From: a virus
Lineage: Duplodnaviria > Caudoviricetes
DNA: 64,000 nt
Direction: 5' to 3' (one strand)
IMG/VR virus record: IMGVR_UViG_3300021431_004509
Location: 1 to 64,000 of that record
Part shown: one piece after another, positions 3,224-62,300 of the stretch
Layout: the number at the start of each line of letters is the position of its first letter
Numbering within the stretch: the stretch's first letter is position 1
Made by a program: the position numbers and the translations under genes
Notes under the pieces: generated by a model
What the model saw: the letters and a program-made list of their open reading frames with translations, nothing else
Told to the model about the DNA's origin: nothing
Database searches by the model: none

Positions 3224-3352
3224 TCAGCCTGACGTCCATGACGTCGTCTGCAGACTGATGCAAACAGGTATAAATACAGATCCATCCAACGTTTTGCGCA
3301 TACACAGGGACCCACGATGAGTCAACTGCCGAGGCGTAGTCGCCCTAAACAT
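3224..3352 (-). CDS. Possible 42-aa ORF or gene remnant (MFRATTPRQL...)
   Basis: GAGGTGG SD and ATG at 3352; open to TGA at 3224; below the ORF-track cutoff. Confidence 0.3.
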   Translation of the reverse strand: MFRATTPRQLTHRGSLCMRKTLDGSVFIPVCISLQTTSWTSG

Positions 3353-3386
3353 AAAACCACCTCGTTTTCAAATATGGTATAAGGTA

Positions 3387-3975: not shown

Positions 3976-5415
3976 AGAACCAGATCCAAGAATTCCAAGC
4001 TTCTTGATTCTTTTTGTGTCTGCTGTAAAAAACCCAGTATAGACACATCCAGAAGACTCATACTTTGTGCCGCCATACATCTCCCTCGCGGATGGAATCC
4101 ACACCTTGTCGTTTACGGTTTTTGTGGAACTGGATGTCTTATCGTAGAATGTCTTTTTGACAGACTTTACAGCAACTTTCACAGTGCTCTCCATATTGTC
4201 GTAGAGTGCCTGCATAAGGCTTGTGCGAAGCGGACAAACTTCCCATCCGCCGGCGTTTGTATTTGCTGGGTTCATCATAGCCCGCAGAGGCAGATTGGTG
4301 GCCAGCCATGTGATCTTGGCCTTACCGGTGTCGTCCGCCAATTCATCAGTATCCATGGCGACGATTTGCATCAGCATGTGGAAAGCACCAATGTTGACAA
4401 CCTTTGTATCTCCGACGCTATACTTGGAAGAGTATGTGCCGTCGTTCTCCGCAGCGAGAATGTCTGCCCAACTGTCAGTGATTGTCCCCGTCACGACTTC
4501 TTTTGGATATTCATCCAGAGATACAATCTGGTTTGCGTATGTAGCCCAGTTTGTCGCAGACTTATAGGTGTCGACGAGCTCGCTCGGTACAAAGATATGC
4601 CCTATTCCGGATGCGATTGGCGTATTTGTCAGCGCGTTTGTGTTCGCAAGCGTAAGCTGTGATGCATTACGTAAGACCAATGACATGAGGTTGTAATCCC
4701 CGGCAAATGCACTGGCAACGATAGACGGCTTTGCACTAAGGTCAACTTCTGCAGCAAAGTTTGTGATATTGCTTCCCAATGTCGTGGCGGACGGAAGTAC
4801 AAGTTTGTCTACAACTGCATTGTAAAATGCGCTTCTGCCAATACTCGTGGCAGAAGGAAACGACGGAGTCATAAGAGCAGTACACCCCTGGAAGGCTGAG
4901 CCTCCGATGGATTTGACATTTGGAAAACTGACGTCACGCAAGGCCATACAGCTACAAAAACAGCTTGATGCAATATCTGACAGCGATGCAGAGAAACTGA
5001 TAGTTGTAAGCTTCGTGCAATTGCCAAACATACTCGCAACCAGAAAGCGCATCTTCGGAAATATAGCGCTTTCCAGAGCCGTACATCCATAGAACGCATC
5101 AGTCCCTCCATATATTGCTTCCGGGGCAGACACGTCGCGCAGAGCGATGCAGCTCCGGAACATATATTGCCCAAAATGTTTCATGTTAGGAAACGCTGCA
5201 GAAGTAAGAGCAGAACAAGAAGCAAACGCTGACCCTCCGACTTCCTTGGATGTAATGCCTGGCAACTCAACGTACCTTAGACCTATGTTGTTATACAACG
5301 CATAACTCATAAGAGTATCTACGCTATCTTCTTTTAGCTCTTCCAATTCACCCGCGACCAACAAGTCAAACGTTGCTTGATCACCAAGTTCGTCTCGCGT
5401 ATTAATAAATGACAT
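3844..5415 (-). CDS. BspA-type LRR_5 + DUF6273 (C-type-lectin-like) adhesin; DGR target 2
   Basis: 'IG..AF..C..L..V.FP' repeats; ends WWLRSA...GGVAFGFCT. Confidence 0.85.
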   Translation of the reverse strand: MSFINTRDELGDQATFDLLVAGELEELKEDSVDTLMSYALYNNIGLRYVELPGITSKEVGGSAFASCSALTSAAFPNMKHFGQYMFRSCIALRDVSAPEAIYGGTDAFYGCTALESAIFPKMRFLVASMFGNCTKLTTISFSASLSDIASSCFCSCMALRDVSFPNVKSIGGSAFQGCTALMTPSFPSATSIGRSAFYNAVVDKLVLPSATTLGSNITNFAAEVDLSAKPSIVASAFAGDYNLMSLVLRNASQLTLANTNALTNTPIASGIGHIFVPSELVDTYKSATNWATYANQIVSLDEYPKEVVTGTITDSWADILAAENDGTYSSKYSVGDTKVVNIGAFHMLMQIVAMDTDELADDTGKAKITWLATNLPLRAMMNPANTNAGGWEVCPLRTSLMQALYDNMESTVKVAVKSVKKTFYDKTSSSTKTVNDKVWIPSAREMYGGTKYESSGCVYTGFFTADTKRIKKLGILGSGSAAPWWLRSAYSSDNTAFRSFTNGGTVSNNSSLYTGGVAFGFCT

Positions 5416-52661: not shown

Positions 52662-53498
52662 TTATGTTTTTGCGGCAGCCTCACTGTTTGTATTTCCTCC
52701 TAACGTGGTCTGCTGGTTATCCGCATACTTTGACGCCGCATTCAAGATACGAGATCTCATAACATGGTTAACGATCTGGCGCATATGTACTTTCACCGCG
52801 CAGTCCTTGCAGTATTTCATACGGTGTTTCTGCGATCCATCGGGCACCTTCACAGTAAGTCCGCAGTTCTGGCATACAAAGTACGGCTTGCCAAGCAGCA
52901 TCATATATTGATTGCCGAGATTCCTGTAGTCTCGGATCTCTACTGCAGTCTCGCCGTCCTCAACAAAAAGAACCTTCACGTTCAGGTTTGTGATCCTCTT
53001 GGAAGATTGGATCAAGCCGGCATCCAGCAGCTGCCCATAGAGCAGGTTCTGCCGCTTGTATGACGTGTTGATATTCGCCATTTTCATGATATCACTTTCC
53101 GGCGTGTTGACCCACCAGTCCGTCTGCGGTGATACGACCTTCATATACTTTGCTATGCACAACAGCGTAAAGGCGAGCCGCTGTGCCTGTACTCCTTTCA
53201 CAGCCTTGATCCGTGCAATCTCCGGCTTTGTGATCTCGATCTTATCAATAATAATGAGTGGATGCTTCATCCCGTATTTCACCGAGCTTTCAATCGTATC
53301 GGCCCACAGTACGGTCGATGCGTAAGGATCGCACCGCAGGAGGAATTCTTCAACCTTCTTCTTGACTCCTGCCTTCTTGTACCCCATGTGTTTGTAATAC
53401 TTTGCTACGCGCCCAAGCGTCTCCGCAGGATTGCTTCCGAGCTCATAATGCTCAATCGCTTCCTTCGTCCATGTCAGTTCGTCCAGAATAATACTCAT
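52662..53498 (-). CDS. RNAP-associated hypothetical protein with C-terminal Zn ribbon
   Basis: 'RLAFTLLC.AK', CQNC...CKDC; overlaps the RNAP stop. Confidence 0.65.
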   Translation of the reverse strand: MSIILDELTWTKEAIEHYELGSNPAETLGRVAKYYKHMGYKKAGVKKKVEEFLLRCDPYASTVLWADTIESSVKYGMKHPLIIIDKIEITKPEIARIKAVKGVQAQRLAFTLLCIAKYMKVVSPQTDWWVNTPESDIMKMANINTSYKRQNLLYGQLLDAGLIQSSKRITNLNVKVLFVEDGETAVEIRDYRNLGNQYMMLLGKPYFVCQNCGLTVKVPDGSQKHRMKYCKDCAVKVHMRQIVNHVMRSRILNAASKYADNQQTTLGGNTNSEAAAKT

Positions 53499-56226
53499 CA
53501 GATTCCCCCAATGTTTTTGTTATCACCGTAAACCGCTCACCGCAATACTCGATTTCCCCGTCGTCTGCTTGAACCGGTATGGAAAGAACGCCGCCATTTT
53601 TATCCAGCAGGTTCTGTACCACCTGCTCGGCAAATGTTCCCCACAGCAATCTCTTTGTCGCGCTCTTCCCGTACCAGATATCGATCAGGATATTGACAAG
53701 CTCCGCATCGCAGGAGCACACAGCCGCACACTCACGTCTGAACTCATCGTAAATACTATGGTTGAATACAAACACCTCATCCTGATCCACACTGTTCGAA
53801 TTTGCGTACGCCATGTATTCCTTCAGCCGCCTGCTGTATTCCTCATAAAGCTTTTTCACCGTGTAGTATCTGTGCTGCTTGTATGTCGCGTCGCTTTTAT
53901 ACAACGATGTATCAAACGTTCCTGCCGCAGAAGCCCGACCGACAAACCCGTCGAAGGCTTCTTCAAACTTCCGGCAGATTCTGTTCATCACGCAGTCTCC
54001 GACGCCGACCGGCATACCGAGATCATAATACCGCAGGAAGTCTTTCTGTCTGTCGGTCAGCTCGGAATAGGGGAGTGCCCGCAATTCATCCACCCCAATC
54101 CGAAACTCACGAAGCGCGGCTCCGTCTGACTTCCGGATATATGTCTTGTATTCCTTCATCAGGTCCGGATAGATATACCGCATAAAGGCAGGCTTTCTGT
54201 CCGCAACGATGCTTCTGTAAAAGCTGCGTGTATCGTCGTCCTCAATCTGGTTGACTGCGTGCCTGTCATGCCACTCCCTCGGCATCGGTTTTGCGATAAT
54301 ACCCTTCGCCCGATCAATTACATTCTGCTGCAGAAGCTGGCCGACCATCGTTCTGTATTCCAGCTCCTTATATTCCTTGCTCTCCGGCTTGAAATGTGAC
54401 TGCACCTCATACATGGATGTGATCCAGTTTGTTGTCTTCCCGATCTCATTTCCAAATGCAAGGATGTTCGCCTGTATCGTGTCGTCCTCTCCCGGGACGA
54501 TTTTTGTCGCCTTCCTCTGGGCACACATGATTGTCGGCAGTTCTCTGTTCCGCCTGACAAGAACAGGGTTGTCCGTCAGCATAACAATATCGCCATCGTA
54601 ATCAGCGCCATTGAGTGCGGCTGTCATGGAGTCCCATACGTTAAAGATCGTTCCCGTCGTATTGAAGCGATACCAATACGCAGCCTCCGCGGACATACAT
54701 GGATGAACCTTCCGGATGTTGTTGTGTACAGACATCGGCGCCCGGAAGCACACAAGGTTGTCCTGGCCGTTATCAACCCAATACTTGTTGTAGATCTCTC
54801 CGGCCTTTAACAGCCCGGTCACTTCCATACCGAAGATACTCTGGCAAAGTGCATACGGGTCTCCGGAGATGATGGAGTAATTTCCATGTACATTGAGCAC
54901 GCCGACTTTTGCCTCATTGATCCTGTTGCGAATCAGTTGGTAGATAGACGCCTTCACGAACGGGTCGTCCAGCACACGTTTGTCTGCCATGATAGCCTTT
55001 GCGATCCCAGGCTTTAACCTCTCCGGGCTTGCATTGCCCACACCGGTTCCGGAAAGAAACAGGACTGTCTTTGCCCAATCCCCTCCAAGCACACCATTTA
55101 ACTCATCCATAGTCGGTGCGATCAGCTCATCAATGTCATCGTCAGACATCTGATAGGACTGGATAAACTGATAGTTAAGCGATCTCTGATTCTCCAGCAC
55201 CTCCGGCGCCGTCTTGGTCACGCAAATTGAGTAACCGTTCTCCGTGCAGCAGTCGAGATAATGGTCAATGCTTCTGTAACTATCCCACAGCTTCAGCATG
55301 CTCTCCGTGAAAATCAGTTCTACTTGACGTATGTCAATCTCGTTCCCCCATACGTCCGTCACCATGTATTTCCCGGCGACATTCTCCGCAAAGTCCAAAA
55401 AGTCAAAGGTAAAGATCATGCCCTTTTCAAAGCTGAGTCTTGTGTTGCACCCGCTCATAACGTAGTTAAGGCCAAGCTCCCTGCTCCATCTCTCTGCAAG
55501 TGACGGCAGCATCAGCCCGCAGCCGTCGCACCCATCCATCCGGATCTCCGTATCCTTCTGGAACTCCATGACCGGCTCGCCGTCTCCCTCGTCAGTGATA
55601 TAGATCGTGTCCTCGTGAAACACCGTTTCGAAATCCTTTACCACCAGGATTCCATTCGGCCATGACACAGGGACAGACGCGCTGCATGCAAGCGCCTTAT
55701 AAGCCTCCAGCTTCGCCGGGACAAGCTGCTTGTTCATATCTCTCCCATTGTCGATCCTGCGTCTGATCTCATCGATATGCCGTTCGCTGATAAAGACGAT
55801 GGTGCTGTTTTTGATTCCGCCGTTTGTGCCAAGCAGACGCTTATAGCTGATCCCGTTGATACTGAACCCGTTGCACGCACGCCAGTAATCCTTTTCCTTG
55901 TCAATAATAAGGCACATATAGTCCGGCTTGAACTGGATCGTATCCAGCTTCTGATAAAGCTGGCGCACAGCCTTTCTGTTTTCAATATTGTTATCTGCTT
56001 TGCGCAGCCGCACGATCTCGCGCTTGATCTCCGCTGCGCGTTCGTCTGCGTCGACAATTCCGTTTAACTCATCCAGCCACCGCAGAACCTGGCTGCTTGC
56101 AAGTGCGATCACCTCTCCGTTTTTTCTTGCCTCAGATATCGGGAGAGTAAGCTTCCACCTTGCCTCGCGCAGCCGTGAGCTGTGTATCTTGTAGATATAG
56201 CGCGGACTCGCTGTCTGTTGCTTAAT
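53452..56226 (-). CDS. YonO-like single-subunit two-barrel RNA polymerase (homologous to eukaryotic RNAi RdRPs)
   Basis: Catalytic 'NGADYDGD', 'DGCG', 'KGM', 'LNYQFIQS', 'FRAP', 'ID.AKG'; frame extends 38 codons above the track start to an ATT placed 8 nt after AAAGGAGG. Confidence 0.88.
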   Translation of the reverse strand: MKQQTASPRYIYKIHSSRLREARWKLTLPISEARKNGEVIALASSQVLRWLDELNGIVDADERAAEIKREIVRLRKADNNIENRKAVRQLYQKLDTIQFKPDYMCLIIDKEKDYWRACNGFSINGISYKRLLGTNGGIKNSTIVFISERHIDEIRRRIDNGRDMNKQLVPAKLEAYKALACSASVPVSWPNGILVVKDFETVFHEDTIYITDEGDGEPVMEFQKDTEIRMDGCDGCGLMLPSLAERWSRELGLNYVMSGCNTRLSFEKGMIFTFDFLDFAENVAGKYMVTDVWGNEIDIRQVELIFTESMLKLWDSYRSIDHYLDCCTENGYSICVTKTAPEVLENQRSLNYQFIQSYQMSDDDIDELIAPTMDELNGVLGGDWAKTVLFLSGTGVGNASPERLKPGIAKAIMADKRVLDDPFVKASIYQLIRNRINEAKVGVLNVHGNYSIISGDPYALCQSIFGMEVTGLLKAGEIYNKYWVDNGQDNLVCFRAPMSVHNNIRKVHPCMSAEAAYWYRFNTTGTIFNVWDSMTAALNGADYDGDIVMLTDNPVLVRRNRELPTIMCAQRKATKIVPGEDDTIQANILAFGNEIGKTTNWITSMYEVQSHFKPESKEYKELEYRTMVGQLLQQNVIDRAKGIIAKPMPREWHDRHAVNQIEDDDTRSFYRSIVADRKPAFMRYIYPDLMKEYKTYIRKSDGAALREFRIGVDELRALPYSELTDRQKDFLRYYDLGMPVGVGDCVMNRICRKFEEAFDGFVGRASAAGTFDTSLYKSDATYKQHRYYTVKKLYEEYSRRLKEYMAYANSNSVDQDEVFVFNHSIYDEFRRECAAVCSCDAELVNILIDIWYGKSATKRLLWGTFAEQVVQNLLDKNGGVLSIPVQADDGEIEYCGERFTVITKTLGESDEYYSGRTDMDEGSD

Positions 56227-56448: not shown

Positions 56449-57697
56449 CTGCGTCACCTCCCTTCGCCGTCTCAACGATCCAATCCCAGAGCAGGTTACG
56501 CATTCGGCAACTCGGCACATACAGGTAGATCGGCTTACCGTCGCGGATCGCGCTTCGCCAGATCCACTGCAGCATCTCTGACAGCGCGATCTCGTCGCGG
56601 TCGATAATGAACCCGCGCTTGGCAAAGAACTTCTGAACGTTCGGGTCCTCATACCGGTTTACCATGTAGGCAAGGTGAGTGCATCGCCTGTACTCGTTCG
56701 TTGCTTTCAGGTTGAGCGGGACGAAGTTTCCGCGGCATCTTCCGTTCGGCGGTACCAGCTTATCCATATCCTTTTTGAAGCATGTCCACATCCGCTCTTT
56801 ACTTGCATCGGCACCGCGTGCTCTGCGAAGGAAACGAAGCATATTCTTCCTGAGCTGTGCGATAAGATCATCGTCCGCATTTCGCATGTTGTACCAATTC
56901 TTTGCGAGTGAATACGTTTCTCTCCCCGGCCTGTTCATATCAGCATCGAGATCAATATGGATCAGTCCTCTATAGTCCACAGCTGGCGGGTTATCCGGAT
57001 GCGGCACAAAGAATGGACCATTGTTGTCAAACTCAATTCCATAGATATCGTACTGGAATCCAAAGATAGCAAGATAGCCGTCGAGTAAACTCTTCTTAAA
57101 ACGATAAGTAAGGATAAACACCTCGTCAAATGCGCTGAGCAAATCCGGGTTCAGGATGCTCATTAAGGAGGTGTCTGCGCAGTACAGGCATCCGGAATCT
57201 GCCATACGTTTATACCCGTTGAACTTCCCCTCATAGCTGTCGTCGATCCAGGACACGCGCCCATCCTCACCAACCTGTACCTGCTGTTTCAGGATCATCT
57301 GCAGATCCTGATGGGTAATTGCCACCTTTTCTATTATATTGATTTCCTCGTCTACGATCAGGACATAATGCTTTTCTTTCACCAGCTCTCTCGCCTCCTC
57401 GTCCATCAGGTAGAAGAGGGAATGGGTAGTGGAAATATTTTTACCGGCCCTGAGGTAATCTTTCAGGATCACTGACTTCGGAATTGCCCGCGCATCATCC
57501 GCGCCGTCTTCTATCGTATCATCTTTCGGTTCATCGAAATCACACCACTGGCAAATACGCTCCACCTCTGTCAGATACGGCGTGATATACAGGAAGCGAT
57601 ATTCATCCTTATGATCCTCCATATACCGGATGGCGGCAGTGGACTTGCCTCTGCCCATCCTGGCGTCTACAACCTTGATATGATTCTCATCATTCAT
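56429..57697 (-). CDS. SF2 helicase-like P-loop protein (possible replication initiator)
   Basis: Walker A 'DARMGRGKST', 'YITPYLTE', 'TTHSLF', Walker B 'LIVDEE', 'QWIWRSAIR.G'. Confidence 0.8.
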   Translation of the reverse strand: MNDENHIKVVDARMGRGKSTAAIRYMEDHKDEYRFLYITPYLTEVERICQWCDFDEPKDDTIEDGADDARAIPKSVILKDYLRAGKNISTTHSLFYLMDEEARELVKEKHYVLIVDEEINIIEKVAITHQDLQMILKQQVQVGEDGRVSWIDDSYEGKFNGYKRMADSGCLYCADTSLMSILNPDLLSAFDEVFILTYRFKKSLLDGYLAIFGFQYDIYGIEFDNNGPFFVPHPDNPPAVDYRGLIHIDLDADMNRPGRETYSLAKNWYNMRNADDDLIAQLRKNMLRFLRRARGADASKERMWTCFKKDMDKLVPPNGRCRGNFVPLNLKATNEYRRCTHLAYMVNRYEDPNVQKFFAKRGFIIDRDEIALSEMLQWIWRSAIRDGKPIYLYVPSCRMRNLLWDWIVETAKGGDAVEDTME

Positions 57698-58499
57698 TGT
57701 TCATAAACCATCTCCTCTCGGCAAATTCTTTTCTTGACGAACTGACAATCCATGCCATCGGAAGCACCCCTTCCCAATGGAAGTCCGCAAAGCCGCATGA
57801 ATACAGGATTTTTTGGGTCTGTTTCTTAAAAGAAATATACTCTCGCAACCTTTGACACAGTCGGGGGTGAGAGACACGTATCCTCGACTGTAACAAGGGA
57901 CGATCGTAAACATTATCTTTTCGTTAAAATGATTATCTTCCCCTCCTATATATTATTCTTTTATTTAATAGCAATTTCCTGAAACCCGCATGAGCACTAG
58001 CTTTTTTTGAGGCCATTGACACTGGAAAATGAATTTGTGTCAACGCCCTTTTTTAAGTGCCTCAAAAAGTTCACAAAATCGAAAAAACGTGTGAATCGTT
58101 TTTGGGCTTCCATTGTGGCAACAACGTTTTTGATCTCCCACCTATTCTTACCGGCGAGACGTGCCGCTACGTTTGAAAGTGACGTCCAGAGAGTAAACGT
58201 ATGCTCGCAGGAGCAAACGGTGTAAAGCGGCACGTCGACCGGTTTGCGTTGTCTGCCGCCGAACATCGTATTCGTCTATGCGGCAGGTGTACGATCGGCA
58301 GACGGATCGAATAGAATAGCTTTGCTGCAGACCACTCATATCATATACGATGCAGCGTCGTTTGATTGTGGTATCAAATCAAATAAATGCGGTCGATTAC
58401 TTGGAGTGAAAAATAAATATATATATTATTGTTTTACAAGTTTGAGATCCACAGTCCTGTCGTTCACTTCCACACATAATCATTTATTTGACATGATGC

Positions 58500-58528
58500 A
58501 TTATACCACATGAGGTTCAATTTGTCAA
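58500..58528 (-). promoter_or_regulatory. Consensus sigmaA promoter (leftward, towards helicase/RNAP)
   Basis: Minus strand TTGACA-17 nt-TATAAT with extended TG. Confidence 0.85.
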
Positions 58529-58876
58529 GTAAAATCGCTTGACAGACCGAATGTTGCAGTTGCAAAATGAGACAAGGCTAGTTGGCGGCGTATTCGATGT
58601 TTCGCTACGTTTTCTGTCTGGACATTTCTTCTTGATCCGGGAGGGCTGAAGCCCGATCAGATCATTTGGACCCGGAAACCATTGAATTTCAACGGGATCG
58701 TTGAGGGGAAGATTTTTTCAAACGCTACCTGGGAGAAGAAGCAGCTTACATTATTTTTCCCGGTCAAGCCGCCGAAAATACCAAAAACAAGCCGCCCCGA
58801 CGGGCTGAAAGTTTCGCTTTGTAATTTTGCAACATAGCGCCATGGGGAGACGGTCAGCACAAGCCGAAAAAAAATC

Positions 58877-58907
58877 AGACTGTAACGCCGTTTTACCTTT
58901 GGGGACA
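58877..58907 (-). repeat. 31-bp motif copy 1 (inverted relative to copies 2 and 3)
   Basis: Reverse complement TGTCCCCAAAGGTAAAACGGCGTTACAGTCT, 30/31 identical to 60180-60210. Confidence 0.9.
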
Positions 58908-58925
58908 GATAACAAAAATTTTTTC

Positions 58926-58954
58926 TTGACAAATACGATTGACGCCCCTATAAT
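58926..58954 (+). promoter_or_regulatory. Consensus sigmaA promoter for the sigma-like gene
   Basis: TTGACA-17 nt-TATAAT. Confidence 0.85.
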
Positions 58955-59030
58955 TGACAGTGTAGTGAAAGCTACACGATGCACATTGACAAATCAAAAA
59001 AACATCTATCGAGAAAGGAAGTAAAAAACC

Positions 59031-60050
59031 ATGAAAAAAACCGCTTTAACTCTTGCCGTCCGTAGCATCAAACGCCGTAACAGTGCCGAAAGAAAGTTGA
59101 TTAATAACCGCTTTTACTATGAGTACAAATTCAACGAAAGCGGCGAATATGTTTCCGACGGCCTGCAAGCCCTGCACAAGTCCGACAAACGCTTTTATAT
59201 CTACATTCCCGCAACAATCGCAAGCGCCGACAATTCGCCTATTTCTGACTTTGGACAAATGTACATGCTGACGCTTGCATATCGCTTTACCGCTCGCGCA
59301 CTGCTGACAAACTATCAGAAATCCGGTCTTGTCATGCTGGACACTCTTTATAAGCAAGTCAAAGCACAGGGGTCAATGCTTTTCGGTCAAGCCATGTTTG
59401 CCGAAATTGAAACGGAATGCAAGTACAGTTACCGCTATTTTGACAGCAAACTGCACAAATTTTTCCAGCGTCAAACGCCGAAAATGAATCAGCGCATTAT
59501 TCACGACGACGCAAAAGAATTTGCATATAACGCAAGCTATGACAAGTCAAAAACAGTTGACGAATACGATGTATTCCAAGACGTAGAAGATTTGCTTTCC
59601 GCCGCACTTGAAAGAATGACAATTCTTGTTAGGGCTGGACAAATCAAGAATTACTGTGATTTTTCGTTACATTCCAGCGCTATTTATGCAGCTATCAACA
59701 GAGAAATTACATATACAAGAACAATTACAGCGCAAATGTCCGATAATGTCCGCATTTTCGACGAAAACGGACTTGAAAGAATCGTTTCCGCGATTTACTT
59801 TGACGAGCACGAAAAGCTTTCAGTTGATGCAATCCTGCAAGAGCTTGCCGGCGTTATGAAAACGCTTTTCCCCCGCTTGAATGTCGAGAAAGCTATTCTT
59901 GCATATCGCAAAACGCTTGACGGTTTCACCATGCGCGAAATTGGAAACGAGCTTGCAGTTGACCATAAACAGATCGTTAGATGGTCAAAAAGTGTCGAAT
60001 ATGCACTTGAAAGCGTCGAATTTGCCGAAAAAGTGTCCGAAATGGTATAA
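59031..60050 (+). CDS. Divergent ECF-sigma-like transcription factor
   Basis: 'DVEDLLSAALERM' resembles region 2; C-terminal 'LDGFTMREIGNELAVDHKQIVRW' resembles the region-4 HTH; long unique N-terminus. Confidence 0.6.
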   Translation: MKKTALTLAVRSIKRRNSAERKLINNRFYYEYKFNESGEYVSDGLQALHKSDKRFYIYIPATIASADNSPISDFGQMYMLTLAYRFTARALLTNYQKSGLVMLDTLYKQVKAQGSMLFGQAMFAEIETECKYSYRYFDSKLHKFFQRQTPKMNQRIIHDDAKEFAYNASYDKSKTVDEYDVFQDVEDLLSAALERMTILVRAGQIKNYCDFSLHSSAIYAAINREITYTRTITAQMSDNVRIFDENGLERIVSAIYFDEHEKLSVDAILQELAGVMKTLFPRLNVEKAILAYRKTLDGFTMREIGNELAVDHKQIVRWSKSVEYALESVEFAEKVSEMV

Positions 60051-60059
60051 ACTCAAATG

Positions 60060-60094
60060 AAAAGAGCTGTCATTCTTGACAGCTCTTTTTTTTT
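60060..60094 (+). terminator. Rho-independent terminator (possibly bidirectional)
   Basis: AAAAGAGCTGTCA-TTCT-TGACAGCTCTTTT followed by more T. Confidence 0.85.
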
Positions 60095-60137
60095 CGCCCC
60101 TGACGGCCTGCACAGCGGCCTGACGGCCACGAGCGCC

Positions 60138-60345
60138 CCTGACGGCCTGACGGCCTGACGAAAGAAAATTTTCGTCAAGTGTCCCCAAAGGTCAAACGGC
60201 GTTACAGTCTAAGTGTAAGCGGTCAGCGCTTGCAGAAAACGCCTGACGGCCTGACGGCCTGACGAAAGAAAATTTTCGTCAAGTGTCCCCAAAGGTCAAA
60301 CGGCGTTACAGTCTAAGTGTAAGCGGTCAGCGCTTGCAGAAAACG
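60138..60345 (+). repeat. Perfect 104-bp tandem duplication carrying CCTGACGG 8-mers, the palindrome TGACGAAA-N6-TTTCGTCA and the 31-bp motif
   Basis: Units start at 60138 and 60242; motif copies at 60180-60210 and 60284-60314. Confidence 0.9.
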
Positions 60346-60757
60346 CACCACCGAGCGCAAGTCGGTGTGAGATCATGCAGCTAACTGCATGTAACCTTGT
60401 GCATAATCAAGGCGTCGCCAGTGGATGGGAGTAGGCCCATTGTTCGGATAGTGAAAGCCGCTGTGAGTGCTGAGTATCGGCAGCCGGCCGTGTATAGCTT
60501 CGGCCGTGACAATGTGATACCGTCACATTCGACACGCTGTCGCGCTGCGCCCTACCGCGTCAAAATTGGGGCGATATATCCAAATGATTTCAGCCTTGCG
60601 CCGTGGTGCGTGTACACGTTTCCGACGTGTACGTTTATCCGGCATATCTCCGATGTGACGGATCGCATGTAATCGGCGCTTGGCTGATTGAAATTGATAT
60701 ATTTTACACACGAAAGCGTGTGGTAGAGCGCCCGCCTGATTACTCCGGCGGGCGTTG
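60318..60757 (+). ncRNA. Candidate large structured ncRNA or 5' leader
   Basis: More than 10 consecutive hairpins and a multibranch domain (60588-60693); no credible ORF. Confidence 0.55.
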
Positions 60758-60804
60758 AATTATGCGCTTTATGTGCAAATTATATCAAAAGGAGAAAAAG
60801 AAAA

Positions 60805-61578
60805 ATGGCTGAAGAAAAAACCCTGAAGACGATGTATAACGAGGTGATCGCTAATGCGAACGCCGTCGTCGTCGCGATGAATGAGCACAAGCCTCAGAAA
60901 GAGGTCAAAGCGCTCAAAAAGGTTTGCAAGGAGTCGGTCGATCTCTATAACGATCGCCTTGCAAAGGCGTACTACATCCGGCTCTCCGAGGAGCATGGCC
61001 ACGACGCTGTCAAGGTCGCTCTTGAGGCCGAGGAGACCGCAATCCCCGATGCAATCGGCATCTCTTTCAAGGTGACTGATGACGATGTCGCCTTGTTCAG
61101 CGAAAACAAGCCCATCGTGAAGATGAACCTCGTCAAGATGCAGCAGGCTATCGGGCCTGAGTACTTTCACAACAAAGACTGGTTTGCCCGCGTCAATGTC
61201 CTTGCCCGGCTTATGGCGGTCGCTCTGAATGAGGAGCTCGGCGGCAGTGCCACGTTCCAGTACATCCTCGATGAATCCGCGAAAGAATTCAAGCTCAGCG
61301 CCGACGCCGATCCGAAGTCGGTCAAGTCCATGGTCAAGGCGTTCCAGCAGGTCATCGACGACGTCCTGTGGATCGACACGCTCGATAAGAGCGGGAACCA
61401 TGTCAACGGCATCAAGTTTACCTCGAAGCAGTGGGCCTATATCCGCGACTGCATGAGCAAGCAGGGCGGGAAGATCGGTGAAGTCCTGTACGGTTCCCCG
61501 GCAAAATGCACCGAGCTCGTTGCGGATTGCATCCACCTGATTCTGACCAACAAGGGCTGCACCCTCAAGGTCGGATAA
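60805..61578 (+). CDS. Highly expressed early hypothetical protein
   Basis: AAAGGAG SD; strong codon bias. Confidence 0.8.
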   Translation: MAEEKTLKTMYNEVIANANAVVVAMNEHKPQKEVKALKKVCKESVDLYNDRLAKAYYIRLSEEHGHDAVKVALEAEETAIPDAIGISFKVTDDDVALFSENKPIVKMNLVKMQQAIGPEYFHNKDWFARVNVLARLMAVALNEELGGSATFQYILDESAKEFKLSADADPKSVKSMVKAFQQVIDDVLWIDTLDKSGNHVNGIKFTSKQWAYIRDCMSKQGGKIGEVLYGSPAKCTELVADCIHLILTNKGCTLKVG

Positions 61579-61593
61579 TTCAATCGGCCACCG

Positions 61594-61625
61594 GGCGGGG
61601 ATGAAAATCCCCGCCCACGGTTTTT
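61594..61625 (+). terminator. Terminator-like hairpin
   Basis: GGGCGGGGAT-GAAA-ATCCCCGCCC then ACGGTTTTT. Confidence 0.55.
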
Positions 61626-61703
61626 GACGATCGGCAACGTCTGCCCATTCGGTTGGGTTTTTGCCGACGGTTTAGGGCTGCTGTCCGATAACAAGCCATT
61701 TAT

Positions 61704-62173: not shown

Positions 62174-62220
62174 TTTCTTCACCATTCCTCCTTTGTTTTG
62201 GCGGGGCTTATGCCACGCCA

Positions 62221-62270
62221 CCTTAATGCAGCCGATGCCGGTCACAAGCCCGGATAAATGCAGAGTGGGG
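62221..62270 (+). ncRNA. Twister (type P1) self-cleaving ribozyme
   Basis: CCT-TAA-TGCA-GC-CGAT-GCCGG-TCAC-AA-GC-CCGG-ATAAA-TGCA-GA-GTG-GGG follows the twister layout: UAA cleavage loop, P2 TGCA/TGCA, P4 CCGG/CCGG, pseudoknot CAC/GTG. Confidence 0.85.
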
Positions 62271-62300
62271 AATTTTATAATTGAATATCGGGGTGATCCC

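Follow-up and report, generated by a model that had tools for sequence, protein, structure and literature searches.

RAGATH motifs were discovered through their association with twister and hammerhead ribozymes. Most of them are of unknown function, and only three members have been reported as ribozymes (PMC11061315, 2024). One motif of particular interest for comparison is RAGATH-18: its 73 nt are the core of a longer RNA, to which the neighbouring protein binds (PMC11061315). Two others, RAGATH-16 and RAGATH-4, found no mention in the literature searched. Among RNAs of phages, HK022 put is a processive antitermination RNA, formed by a two-hairpin element.

The RNA analyzed in the present study is encoded in a member of the Caudoviricetes, IMG/VR record IMGVR_UViG_3300021431_004509, which comprises 117,148 bp and is classed as a provirus; its first 64 kb were investigated and are termed the window. 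Gut metagenomes from sheep and bovines contain this stretch. Leftward genes extend up to position 57697, rightward genes start from about 58900, and a gap of 754 nt without any ORF separates a 339-aa ORF from a 257-aa ORF (Table 1). Into this gap the preliminary description, made from the letters alone, had placed a densely folded non-coding RNA of about 440 nt. As with HK022 put and the leaders of attenuators, this RNA has promoters in front (here promoter-like repeats), a terminator-like hairpin behind it and a pair of hairpins within; it differs in being much larger and shows no similarity to them in sequence or model. As in RAGATH-18 and the IS607 TnpB reRNA, a RAGATH motif of ~73 nt is the core, with conserved flanks and one adjacent protein family (PMC11061315), whereas fold and protein are different: the reRNA lies downstream of its gene and guides a nuclease, while the protein next to the window RNA is acidic and without nuclease motifs.

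Table 1. Features of the RNA locus, in positions of the window.
Feature	Position	Strand	Basis
Third copy of the 30-nt motif, leftward, upstream of the sigma-like gene	58877-58906	-	genome motif search
Perfect TTGACA-17-TATAAT promoter of the sigma-like gene	58926-58954	+	promoter scan
339-aa sigma-like gene, C-terminal region-4-type HTH	59031-60050	+	ORF; upstream partner in the cassette
Intrinsic terminator of the sigma-like gene, 13-bp stem and 9-T run	60055-60094	+	inverted repeat
Two perfect tandem repeats of 104 nt each	60138-60345	+	repeat scan
Variable 5' region with three hairpins (60318-60338, 60347-60368, 60374-60391)	60318-60391	+	MFE fold
RAGATH-16-like core	60395-60467	+	Rfam RF03047, covariation of P1-P3
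Parts of the core: P1; linker CGUCG; P2; P3; loop GAUAGUGAAA	60395-60412; linker; 60418-21/60461-65; 60424-60441; 60447-60456	+	
Hairpins P4 (60469-84), P5 (60485-60506, conserved loop UGUAUAGCUU) and P6 (60511-29)	60469-60529	+	R2
H-type pseudoknot: helix A 60541-44/60556-59, helix B 60548-52/60569-73	60541-60573	+	compensatory changes
Multibranch domain with twin hairpins (60612-32, 60637-63) inside three stacked closing helices	60590-60687	+	R1
Conserved UUGAUAUAUU, then hairpin H3 (60707-22)	60694-60722	+	homolog alignment, R3
H4, GC-rich hairpin of 9 bp with interrupted U tail UGAAUUAU	60728-60763	+	R3, stem energy
Hairpin H5 (60763-77), AGGAG ribosome-binding site (60790-94), ATG of the 257-aa gene	60763-60807	+	alignment, R3
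257-aa gene, downstream of the RNA in all cases	60805-61578	+	ORF, homologs
Intrinsic terminator after the 257-aa gene	61593-61625	+	terminator scan

The plus strand of 60318-60757 folds with a minimum free energy (MFE) of -188.2 kcal/mol, corresponding to z = -5.97 against dinucleotide shuffles, and the minus strand reaches z = -4.32. All stems listed in the preliminary description are present where it had placed them; P2, P4, the pseudoknot and H5 were absent from that list. Three covariance models, R1 for the junction (60586-60700), R2 for the 5' domain (60393-60535) and R3 for the 3' domain (60690-60804), were built from these pairs and a few added ones, each from the window sequence alone, and as single-sequence models their columns equal window positions. 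They were applied to loci fetched via orthologs of the 257-aa protein. The resulting alignments are model-fitted, which biases them toward structure, and controls with slid partners were run against this bias.

The homologs thus collected upstream of the orthologous genes display covariation in all three modelled domains: 95-98% of the pair cells are paired, and 57 of 90 pairs have changed on both sides. R1, which holds the multibranch domain, gave 95% of cells paired as against 20-47% in the slid controls and changes on both sides in 30 of 34 pairs (L030, E 3e-9; L031, 2e-7; L025, 4e-7; L033, 2e-5; L028, 6e-4). R2, which covers the stems CCTTG/CAAGG, ATGGG/CCCAT, CGGCCG/CGGCCG and AATGTGA/TCACATT, matched L025 (E 4e-29), L030 (1e-20), L041 (1.6e-7) and loci with canonical RAGATH-16 (~1e-7), with 98% of cells paired and 19 of 36 pairs changed on both sides. 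R3 matched six loci at E < 1e-5 (96.6% paired; 8 of 20 pairs changed on both sides). Chance is unlikely to account for these pairs, given how many changed on both sides and how the slid-partner controls came out. Over the three domains G-U cells outnumber A-C cells by 51 to 5, an excess which places the constraint on the plus-strand RNA and not on the DNA or the other strand. No conserved ORF runs through the RNA region, the longest stop-free run on the plus strand varying from 56 to 155 codons among the homologs. Hence there is indeed, as first described, a densely folded non-coding phage RNA that follows the repeated motif directly and precedes the 257-aa gene, and it is conserved.

Known RNA classes were compared at two levels. 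An Rfam scan of the window, the check proposed in the preliminary description, gave no match at the curated cut-offs, and a search for tRNA and tmRNA found none; 6S, ROOL, GOLLD, OLE, riboswitches, RNase P and tmRNA likewise gave no gathering-level match in the window and none at E <= 10 in 59950-60900, so that the initial exclusion of tRNA, tmRNA, RNase P and known riboswitches stands. Below the cut-off, 60395-60467 aligns to the whole RAGATH-16 model (RF03047, positions 1-72) with 46.6 bits and E 1.5e-7, the gathering cut-off being 65.6 bits. P1, the CGUCG linker, the 4-bp P2, P3, the GAUAGUGAAA loop and the 3' AG all align, and the two non-canonical pairs of the window copy both fall in P1. 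Among the relatives L025 scores 65.2 bits, L030 passes the cut-off with 67.2 bits, and canonical loci reach 88-96 bits. Independent plain folding of 10 homologs also recovered P2, which closes the GAUAGUGAAA loop and whose arms have seven different sequences among them.

A pattern derived from the RAGATH-16 core led to 21 large phage contigs with canonical RAGATH-16. Their arrangement is that of the window: a 350-390-aa ORF with a region-4-type HTH end, a terminator, tandem repeats, RAGATH-16, about 400 nt of non-coding sequence and a 249-aa ORF. In the same intergenic region canonical loci hold RAGATH-4 with 112-152 bits; it follows RAGATH-16 at a distance of ~180 nt and immediately precedes the last hairpins. 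Diverged RAGATH-4 stands at the equivalent place in two close relatives, L031 (57.2 bits) and L028 (36.7 bits), so that these and the canonical clade have a RAGATH-4-type module at the H3 position. The window differs here, as RAGATH-4 (RF03153, a 131-nt model) gave no match in 59950-60900 at E up to 10 and the simple hairpin H3 takes its place in front of H4. When compared directly, the canonical 249-aa protein and the 257-aa protein are 22% identical, and both match shared family members strongly (P0103, 5e-25; P0039, 1e-22); judged by these sequence matches, the 249-aa protein is a member of the 257-aa family.

Since L030 passes the RAGATH-16 cut-off, RAGATH-4 shares the region and the downstream proteins form one family, the window RNA is a member of a modular family of ~440 nt with RAGATH-16 as its 5' core, and Rfam lists two modules of this RNA family as separate orphan motifs. 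RAGATH-16 as defined in Rfam thus differs in covering 72 nt of a much longer conserved RNA, and its P3 is wholly missing in some relatives. The earlier view of the RNA as undescribed has to be given up for 60395-60467, a diverged RAGATH-16; it is upheld for the ~350 nt without an Rfam family, namely P4-P6, the pseudoknot, the twin-hairpin junction and H3-H5. The models do not reach equally far, as R1 and R3 are blind to the canonical clade and R2 to relatives without P3; for the 3' two thirds, homology across the clades is therefore recognized by position and by the likeness of H4 and H5 only. In other searches, blastn of the RNA region against phage records and a strict RNA pattern in viral and metagenome contigs retrieved no relatives. 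Two apparent tandem copies of RAGATH-16 in L042 were rejected as an artefact of N-masked scaffolding, and the matches L043 and L044 of a genome pattern scan are probably due to chance.

Along the RNA, conservation is uneven. The first stem, TGTAAGCG/CGCTTGCA, lies inside the perfect 104-nt duplication and is hence present twice, and CACCGA/TCGGTG belongs to the part that varies among homologs. The only compensatory change of the variable 5' region is found in its third hairpin (CATGCAG/CTGCATG), in L030; this hairpin is not kept in L025. Behind the core, both-side changes affect 3 of 4 pairs in P4, 4 of 6 in P5 and 5 of 7 in P6. A long-range helix, GUCG 60414-17 with CGAC 60530-33, is kept with one-sided changes only and competes with a small local hairpin. 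Both helices of the pseudoknot are compensatory in L030 (CGCAU/AUGCG; UCAC/GUGA) and in L041 (CGCAAU/AUUGCG; UCGU/ACGA), and the strand order was kept in all four of the four sequences compared. Whole modules are swapped between relatives, that is the RAGATH-4 module, the P3 hairpin and P4-P6.

The twin hairpins of the junction carry similar loops of YUYCG type. Within a genome the two loops are near-identical and between genomes they differ, with CUUCG twice in L030, UUUCG twice in L031 and UAUCG twice in L028; by this pattern they look like paired binding sites which co-evolve with a partner. In the 3' domain CACACG/CGTGTG shows both-side changes in 2 of 6 pairs, while the H4 stem GCGCCCGCC/GGCGGGCGT is 100% paired with such changes in 6 of 9. 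In the window H4 has -20.1 kcal/mol and 4 U among the first 8 bases of its tail, and a simple terminator scan made no call; across the homologs the stem ranges from -16 to -23 kcal/mol with 3-5 U within the first 8 tail bases. By these features H4 resembles a terminator, probably a leaky one. H5 is 100% paired with one-sided changes only and highly conserved in sequence, and H4, H5 and the ribosome-binding site all keep sequence and spacing to the start codon in the homolog alignment. No antiterminator pairing with the 5' arm of H4 is conserved; candidates picked out by eye, with GAGAGC or with H5, are not kept across homologs.

Three further pairings were discarded. The MFE pairing 60343-56/60598-611 conflicts with a strongly covarying helix of the junction, and pairing of the twin loops with the ribosome-binding site, as well as 60694-60701 with 60781-60788, is confined to the window and not conserved in homologs.

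With its neighbours the RNA makes up a cassette of HTH/sigma-like gene, terminator, tandem repeats, RNA and a ~250-aa gene of a single family. Besides the window, L041 and the canonical clade have this conserved cassette, as do 12 distinct loci of the close clade. As terminators flank both the RNA and the 257-aa gene (one behind the sigma-like gene, one behind the 257-aa gene), these two would on sequence grounds form one bounded unit.

The upstream partner evolves fast. The 339-aa protein has a weak match to Sigma70_r4 (E 0.11), its orthologs upstream of the RNA in L026, L028 and L036 share 25-26% identity with it (E 1e-12 to 1e-25), and that of L026 exceeds the Pfam Sigma70_ECF cut-off with 23.5 against 21.1 bits; a search against PDB sequences gave nothing useful. 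Each 104-nt repeat behind this gene consists of CCTGACGG 8-mers, a short hairpin, a 30-nt promoter-like motif and the first hairpin of the RNA. The motif has only three copies in the 117-kb genome, the rightward ones at 60181-60210 and 60285-60314. Homologs possess two tandem copies of a related motif in fixed spacing, A-A/C-G/C-TGTYY (AAGTGTYY-like), ~14 nt and CGTTRC. Among seven homologs the repeat motifs differ in sequence and share a two-block, sigma-type geometry with fixed spacing, and they diverge along with the sigma-like protein. Ahead of RAGATH-16, phages of the canonical clade have an unrelated 58-nt repeat in 1-6 tandem copies. We infer that the tandem repeats are promoters private to the sigma-like protein.

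Canonical-clade phages that are otherwise near-identical (L010, L015, L016, L020, L022, L023) differ in the copy number of the 58-nt repeat, from 1 to 6, and a more diverged copy in unchanged orientation is located upstream of the HTH/sigma-like gene.

The 257-aa protein has 13 close homologs and 92 clusters at 50% identity. It matched no family in Pfam or PHROG, and protein-pattern searches for relatives in viral and genome contigs found none. Its AF2 model (pLDDT 95) resembles nothing beyond generic helical hairpins in the PDB (Foldseek, VIA-align) and has no match in the Atlas; in BFVD it finds one uncharacterised phage protein. With a pI of 6.1 (family median 5.7) the protein is acidic, which speaks mildly against its being the partner of the RNA, a role for which the preliminary description had considered it and the sigma-like protein.

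Metatranscriptome contigs from four of the five runs holding the stretch, belonging to three studies, cover 60242-60594 and 60775-61635; ~60595-60775 is uncovered in all four runs, and the contigs of two studies stop at 60483. Such contigs reflect presence in RNA libraries, not ends, levels or strand, and DNA carry-over is possible. Canonical RAGATH-16 also occurs in contigs assigned to the bins of two MAGs, one of Prevotella and one of Muribaculaceae, such binning of phage contigs being unreliable for the host.

Starting from a plus-strand RNA structure with RAGATH-16 homology in a conserved cassette, we tentatively favour, with a probability of roughly 0.4, a long, modular, structured 5' leader which acts in cis and gates read-through into the 257-aa gene. 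It is preferred because H4, H5 and the ribosome-binding site are tightly coupled to one gene family. The host polymerase would read the sigma-like gene from its consensus sigma-70 promoter and halt at the terminator of this gene; the sigma-like protein could then drive its private promoters, two tandem rightward ones and one leftward one. Rightward transcripts would start at ~60315 (and ~60211), so that the ~440-nt fold is made first and may set in cis the passage of the polymerase through H4 and by this the amount of 257-aa message. H4, which is conserved, lies 50 nt ahead of the start codon and has a weak U tail, would act as the terminator, and a factor specific to the phage would probably take part by binding to the twin hairpins with their YUYCG loops. 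The position of the RNA after promoter-like repeats and before a leaky-looking hairpin fits a role in transcription elongation.

For the cis-acting leader speak the z value of the fold, covariation in every modelled domain with its surplus of G-U over A-C cells (51 to 5), the match to the full RAGATH-16 model, the conserved cassette with its flanking terminators, the sequence and spacing held by H4, H5 and the ribosome-binding site beside the start codon, the sigma-type two-block geometry of the repeats in seven homologs, and the contigs in RNA libraries of three studies, with the proviso of DNA carry-over. On the other hand, the first 8 bases of the H4 tail include only 4 U, the terminator scan did not call this hairpin, and no antiterminator pairing is conserved across homologs. 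Moreover, with ~440 nt, a pseudoknot, at least 14 helices and single-stranded motifs the RNA looks more like a stand-alone RNA and is, to our knowledge, far larger than known attenuators; whole modules are exchanged between relatives, and tandem promoter arrays are typical of abundant stable RNAs. These same traits lend weight to a possible, if less likely, reading in which an abundant RNA extends from the tandem promoters to H4 and acts in trans, the 257-aa message arising by read-through only. It could be the scaffold of a ribonucleoprotein, or it could act on a protein of host or phage, for instance the RNA polymerase holoenzyme, as decoy or modulator. Size and ornate architecture, conserved single-stranded motifs and pseudoknot, promoter-like arrays with up to six copies in canonical phages, the swapping of modules, the strong hairpin H4 parting the fold from the gene and the twin loops, alike within and different between genomes as for co-evolution with a partner, would all suit it, and RAGATH-18 with its 73-nt core of a longer protein-bound RNA offers a precedent (PMC11061315). 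It accounts less well for the strict conservation of the orientation and of the short distance to the ribosome-binding site of a single gene family, for the poor U tract behind H4, and for an adjacent protein that is acidic and in which no RNA-binding fold was found.

Distinctly improbable is processive antitermination in the manner of put, a function suggested in the preliminary description, where the nascent fold would bind the polymerase and render it resistant to H4, to the terminator of the 257-aa gene and to later terminators of the rightward operon with its ribozyme-like elements. The RNA does follow directly on the promoter-like repeats and opens a long rightward operon with terminators at 60728-60763 and 61593-61625, and its twin hairpins recall the two-hairpin element of HK022 by analogy; yet similarity to the antitermination RNAs of Rfam was not found, the window RNA has six times the size of put, the leftward copy of the 30-nt motif has no related RNA behind it, and the canonical clade is, as far as the models detect, without the twin-hairpin junction. 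A self-cleaving or otherwise reactive ribozyme that needs the full ~440 nt would agree with the discovery of RAGATH motifs by association with twister and hammerhead ribozymes, with the twister-like element at 62220-62271 in the operon and with twister-P1 and HDV-like matches in relatives. It would also agree with the fact that three RAGATH members only are reported ribozymes and the rest are unexplained (PMC11061315). We regard this as very unlikely all the same, as no known ribozyme class was matched and a free exchange of modules between relatives is unusual for a catalytic core. Hardly credible, finally, is an origin of the signal outside the RNA level, be it a DNA site (origin, iterons), a gene for a small protein or structure that arose by chance. 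There are indeed 8-mers and tandem repeats in the DNA just upstream, and a 91-codon ORF overlaps, but the ORF is not conserved, an RNA covariance model is matched, and neither the compensatory changes nor the 51 G-U against 5 A-C cells would be expected.

The consequences differ with the reading. If the RNA is a cis-acting leader only, it is still an unusually large and modular one; if control of the polymerase or action in trans proves true, it would represent a new kind of phage takeover RNA. A wider proposal, which we hold to be doubtful, is that RAGATH-16, RAGATH-4, the pseudoknot and the twin-hairpin junction belong to one large, ornate class of phage RNA which would function as an RNA in itself and, during takeover, bind and reprogram the transcription machinery or another host complex, mass-produced from a promoter array private to a phage sigma-like factor and not the mere front of a message. 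By this locus and its relatives, the orphan motif RAGATH-16 gains a defined unit that can be tested by means of sigma-like factor and putative promoter, RNA, terminator-like hairpin and reporter, RAGATH-16 and RAGATH-4 become modules of one ~440-nt RNA, and ~350 nt of covarying structure beyond any Rfam model are added. On one side of the RNA there is always a fast-evolving sigma-like gene, together with tandem promoter-like repeats, and on the other a single conserved gene of 250 residues, and the cassette spans phage contigs binned with Prevotella and Muribaculaceae MAGs as well as phages of ruminant gut samples.

Metagenome contigs that carry an ortholog of the 257-aa gene very often break off ahead of it, at a distance of 190-600 nt, many of them at 400-600 nt, in or beside the tandem repeats (L025, L027, L029, L030, L032-L035, L038-L041). 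This suggests systematic assembly failure, as is expected at tandem repeats, by which the cassette is hidden in short-read assemblies.

Further matches to orphan or ribozyme RNAs occur in the operons concerned. Downstream of the 257-aa gene and within its operon, 62220-62271 (plus strand) matches twister-P1 below the threshold, with 56.7 bits against a cut-off of 67.2 (E 1.7e-11), a trait shared with RAGATH-16 members in that the window has a twister-like element in its operon. Relatives have twister-P1-like matches too (L025 1601-1660, L038 1746-1798, L006 2163-2227), and L026 an HDV-like match of 39.4 bits at 3322-3385 on the plus strand, again in the operon. L006 holds further orphan or ribozyme-like RNAs within its operon at 1540-1668 and 3992-4046, both on the minus strand; it has RAGATH-36 (150 bits), as well as a twister-P1-like match ~160 nt upstream of RAGATH-16, where other relatives have their repeats.

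Upstream of the cassette, 57914-59030 is a region of ~1.1 kb without convincing ORF, in which an Rfam scan gave no match at E up to 0.1. It carries two perfect consensus sigma-70 promoters in divergent orientation, that of the sigma-like gene and a second one at 58528-58500 on the minus strand, in addition to the leftward copy of the 30-nt motif. At the head of the leftward gene block stands an 886-aa ORF (53452-56112, minus strand) with matches to the Pfam family RdRP (PF05183, E 1.9e-12) and to PHROGs of unknown function; we take the RdRP match to be of the kind that YonO-type single-subunit phage RNA polymerases give.
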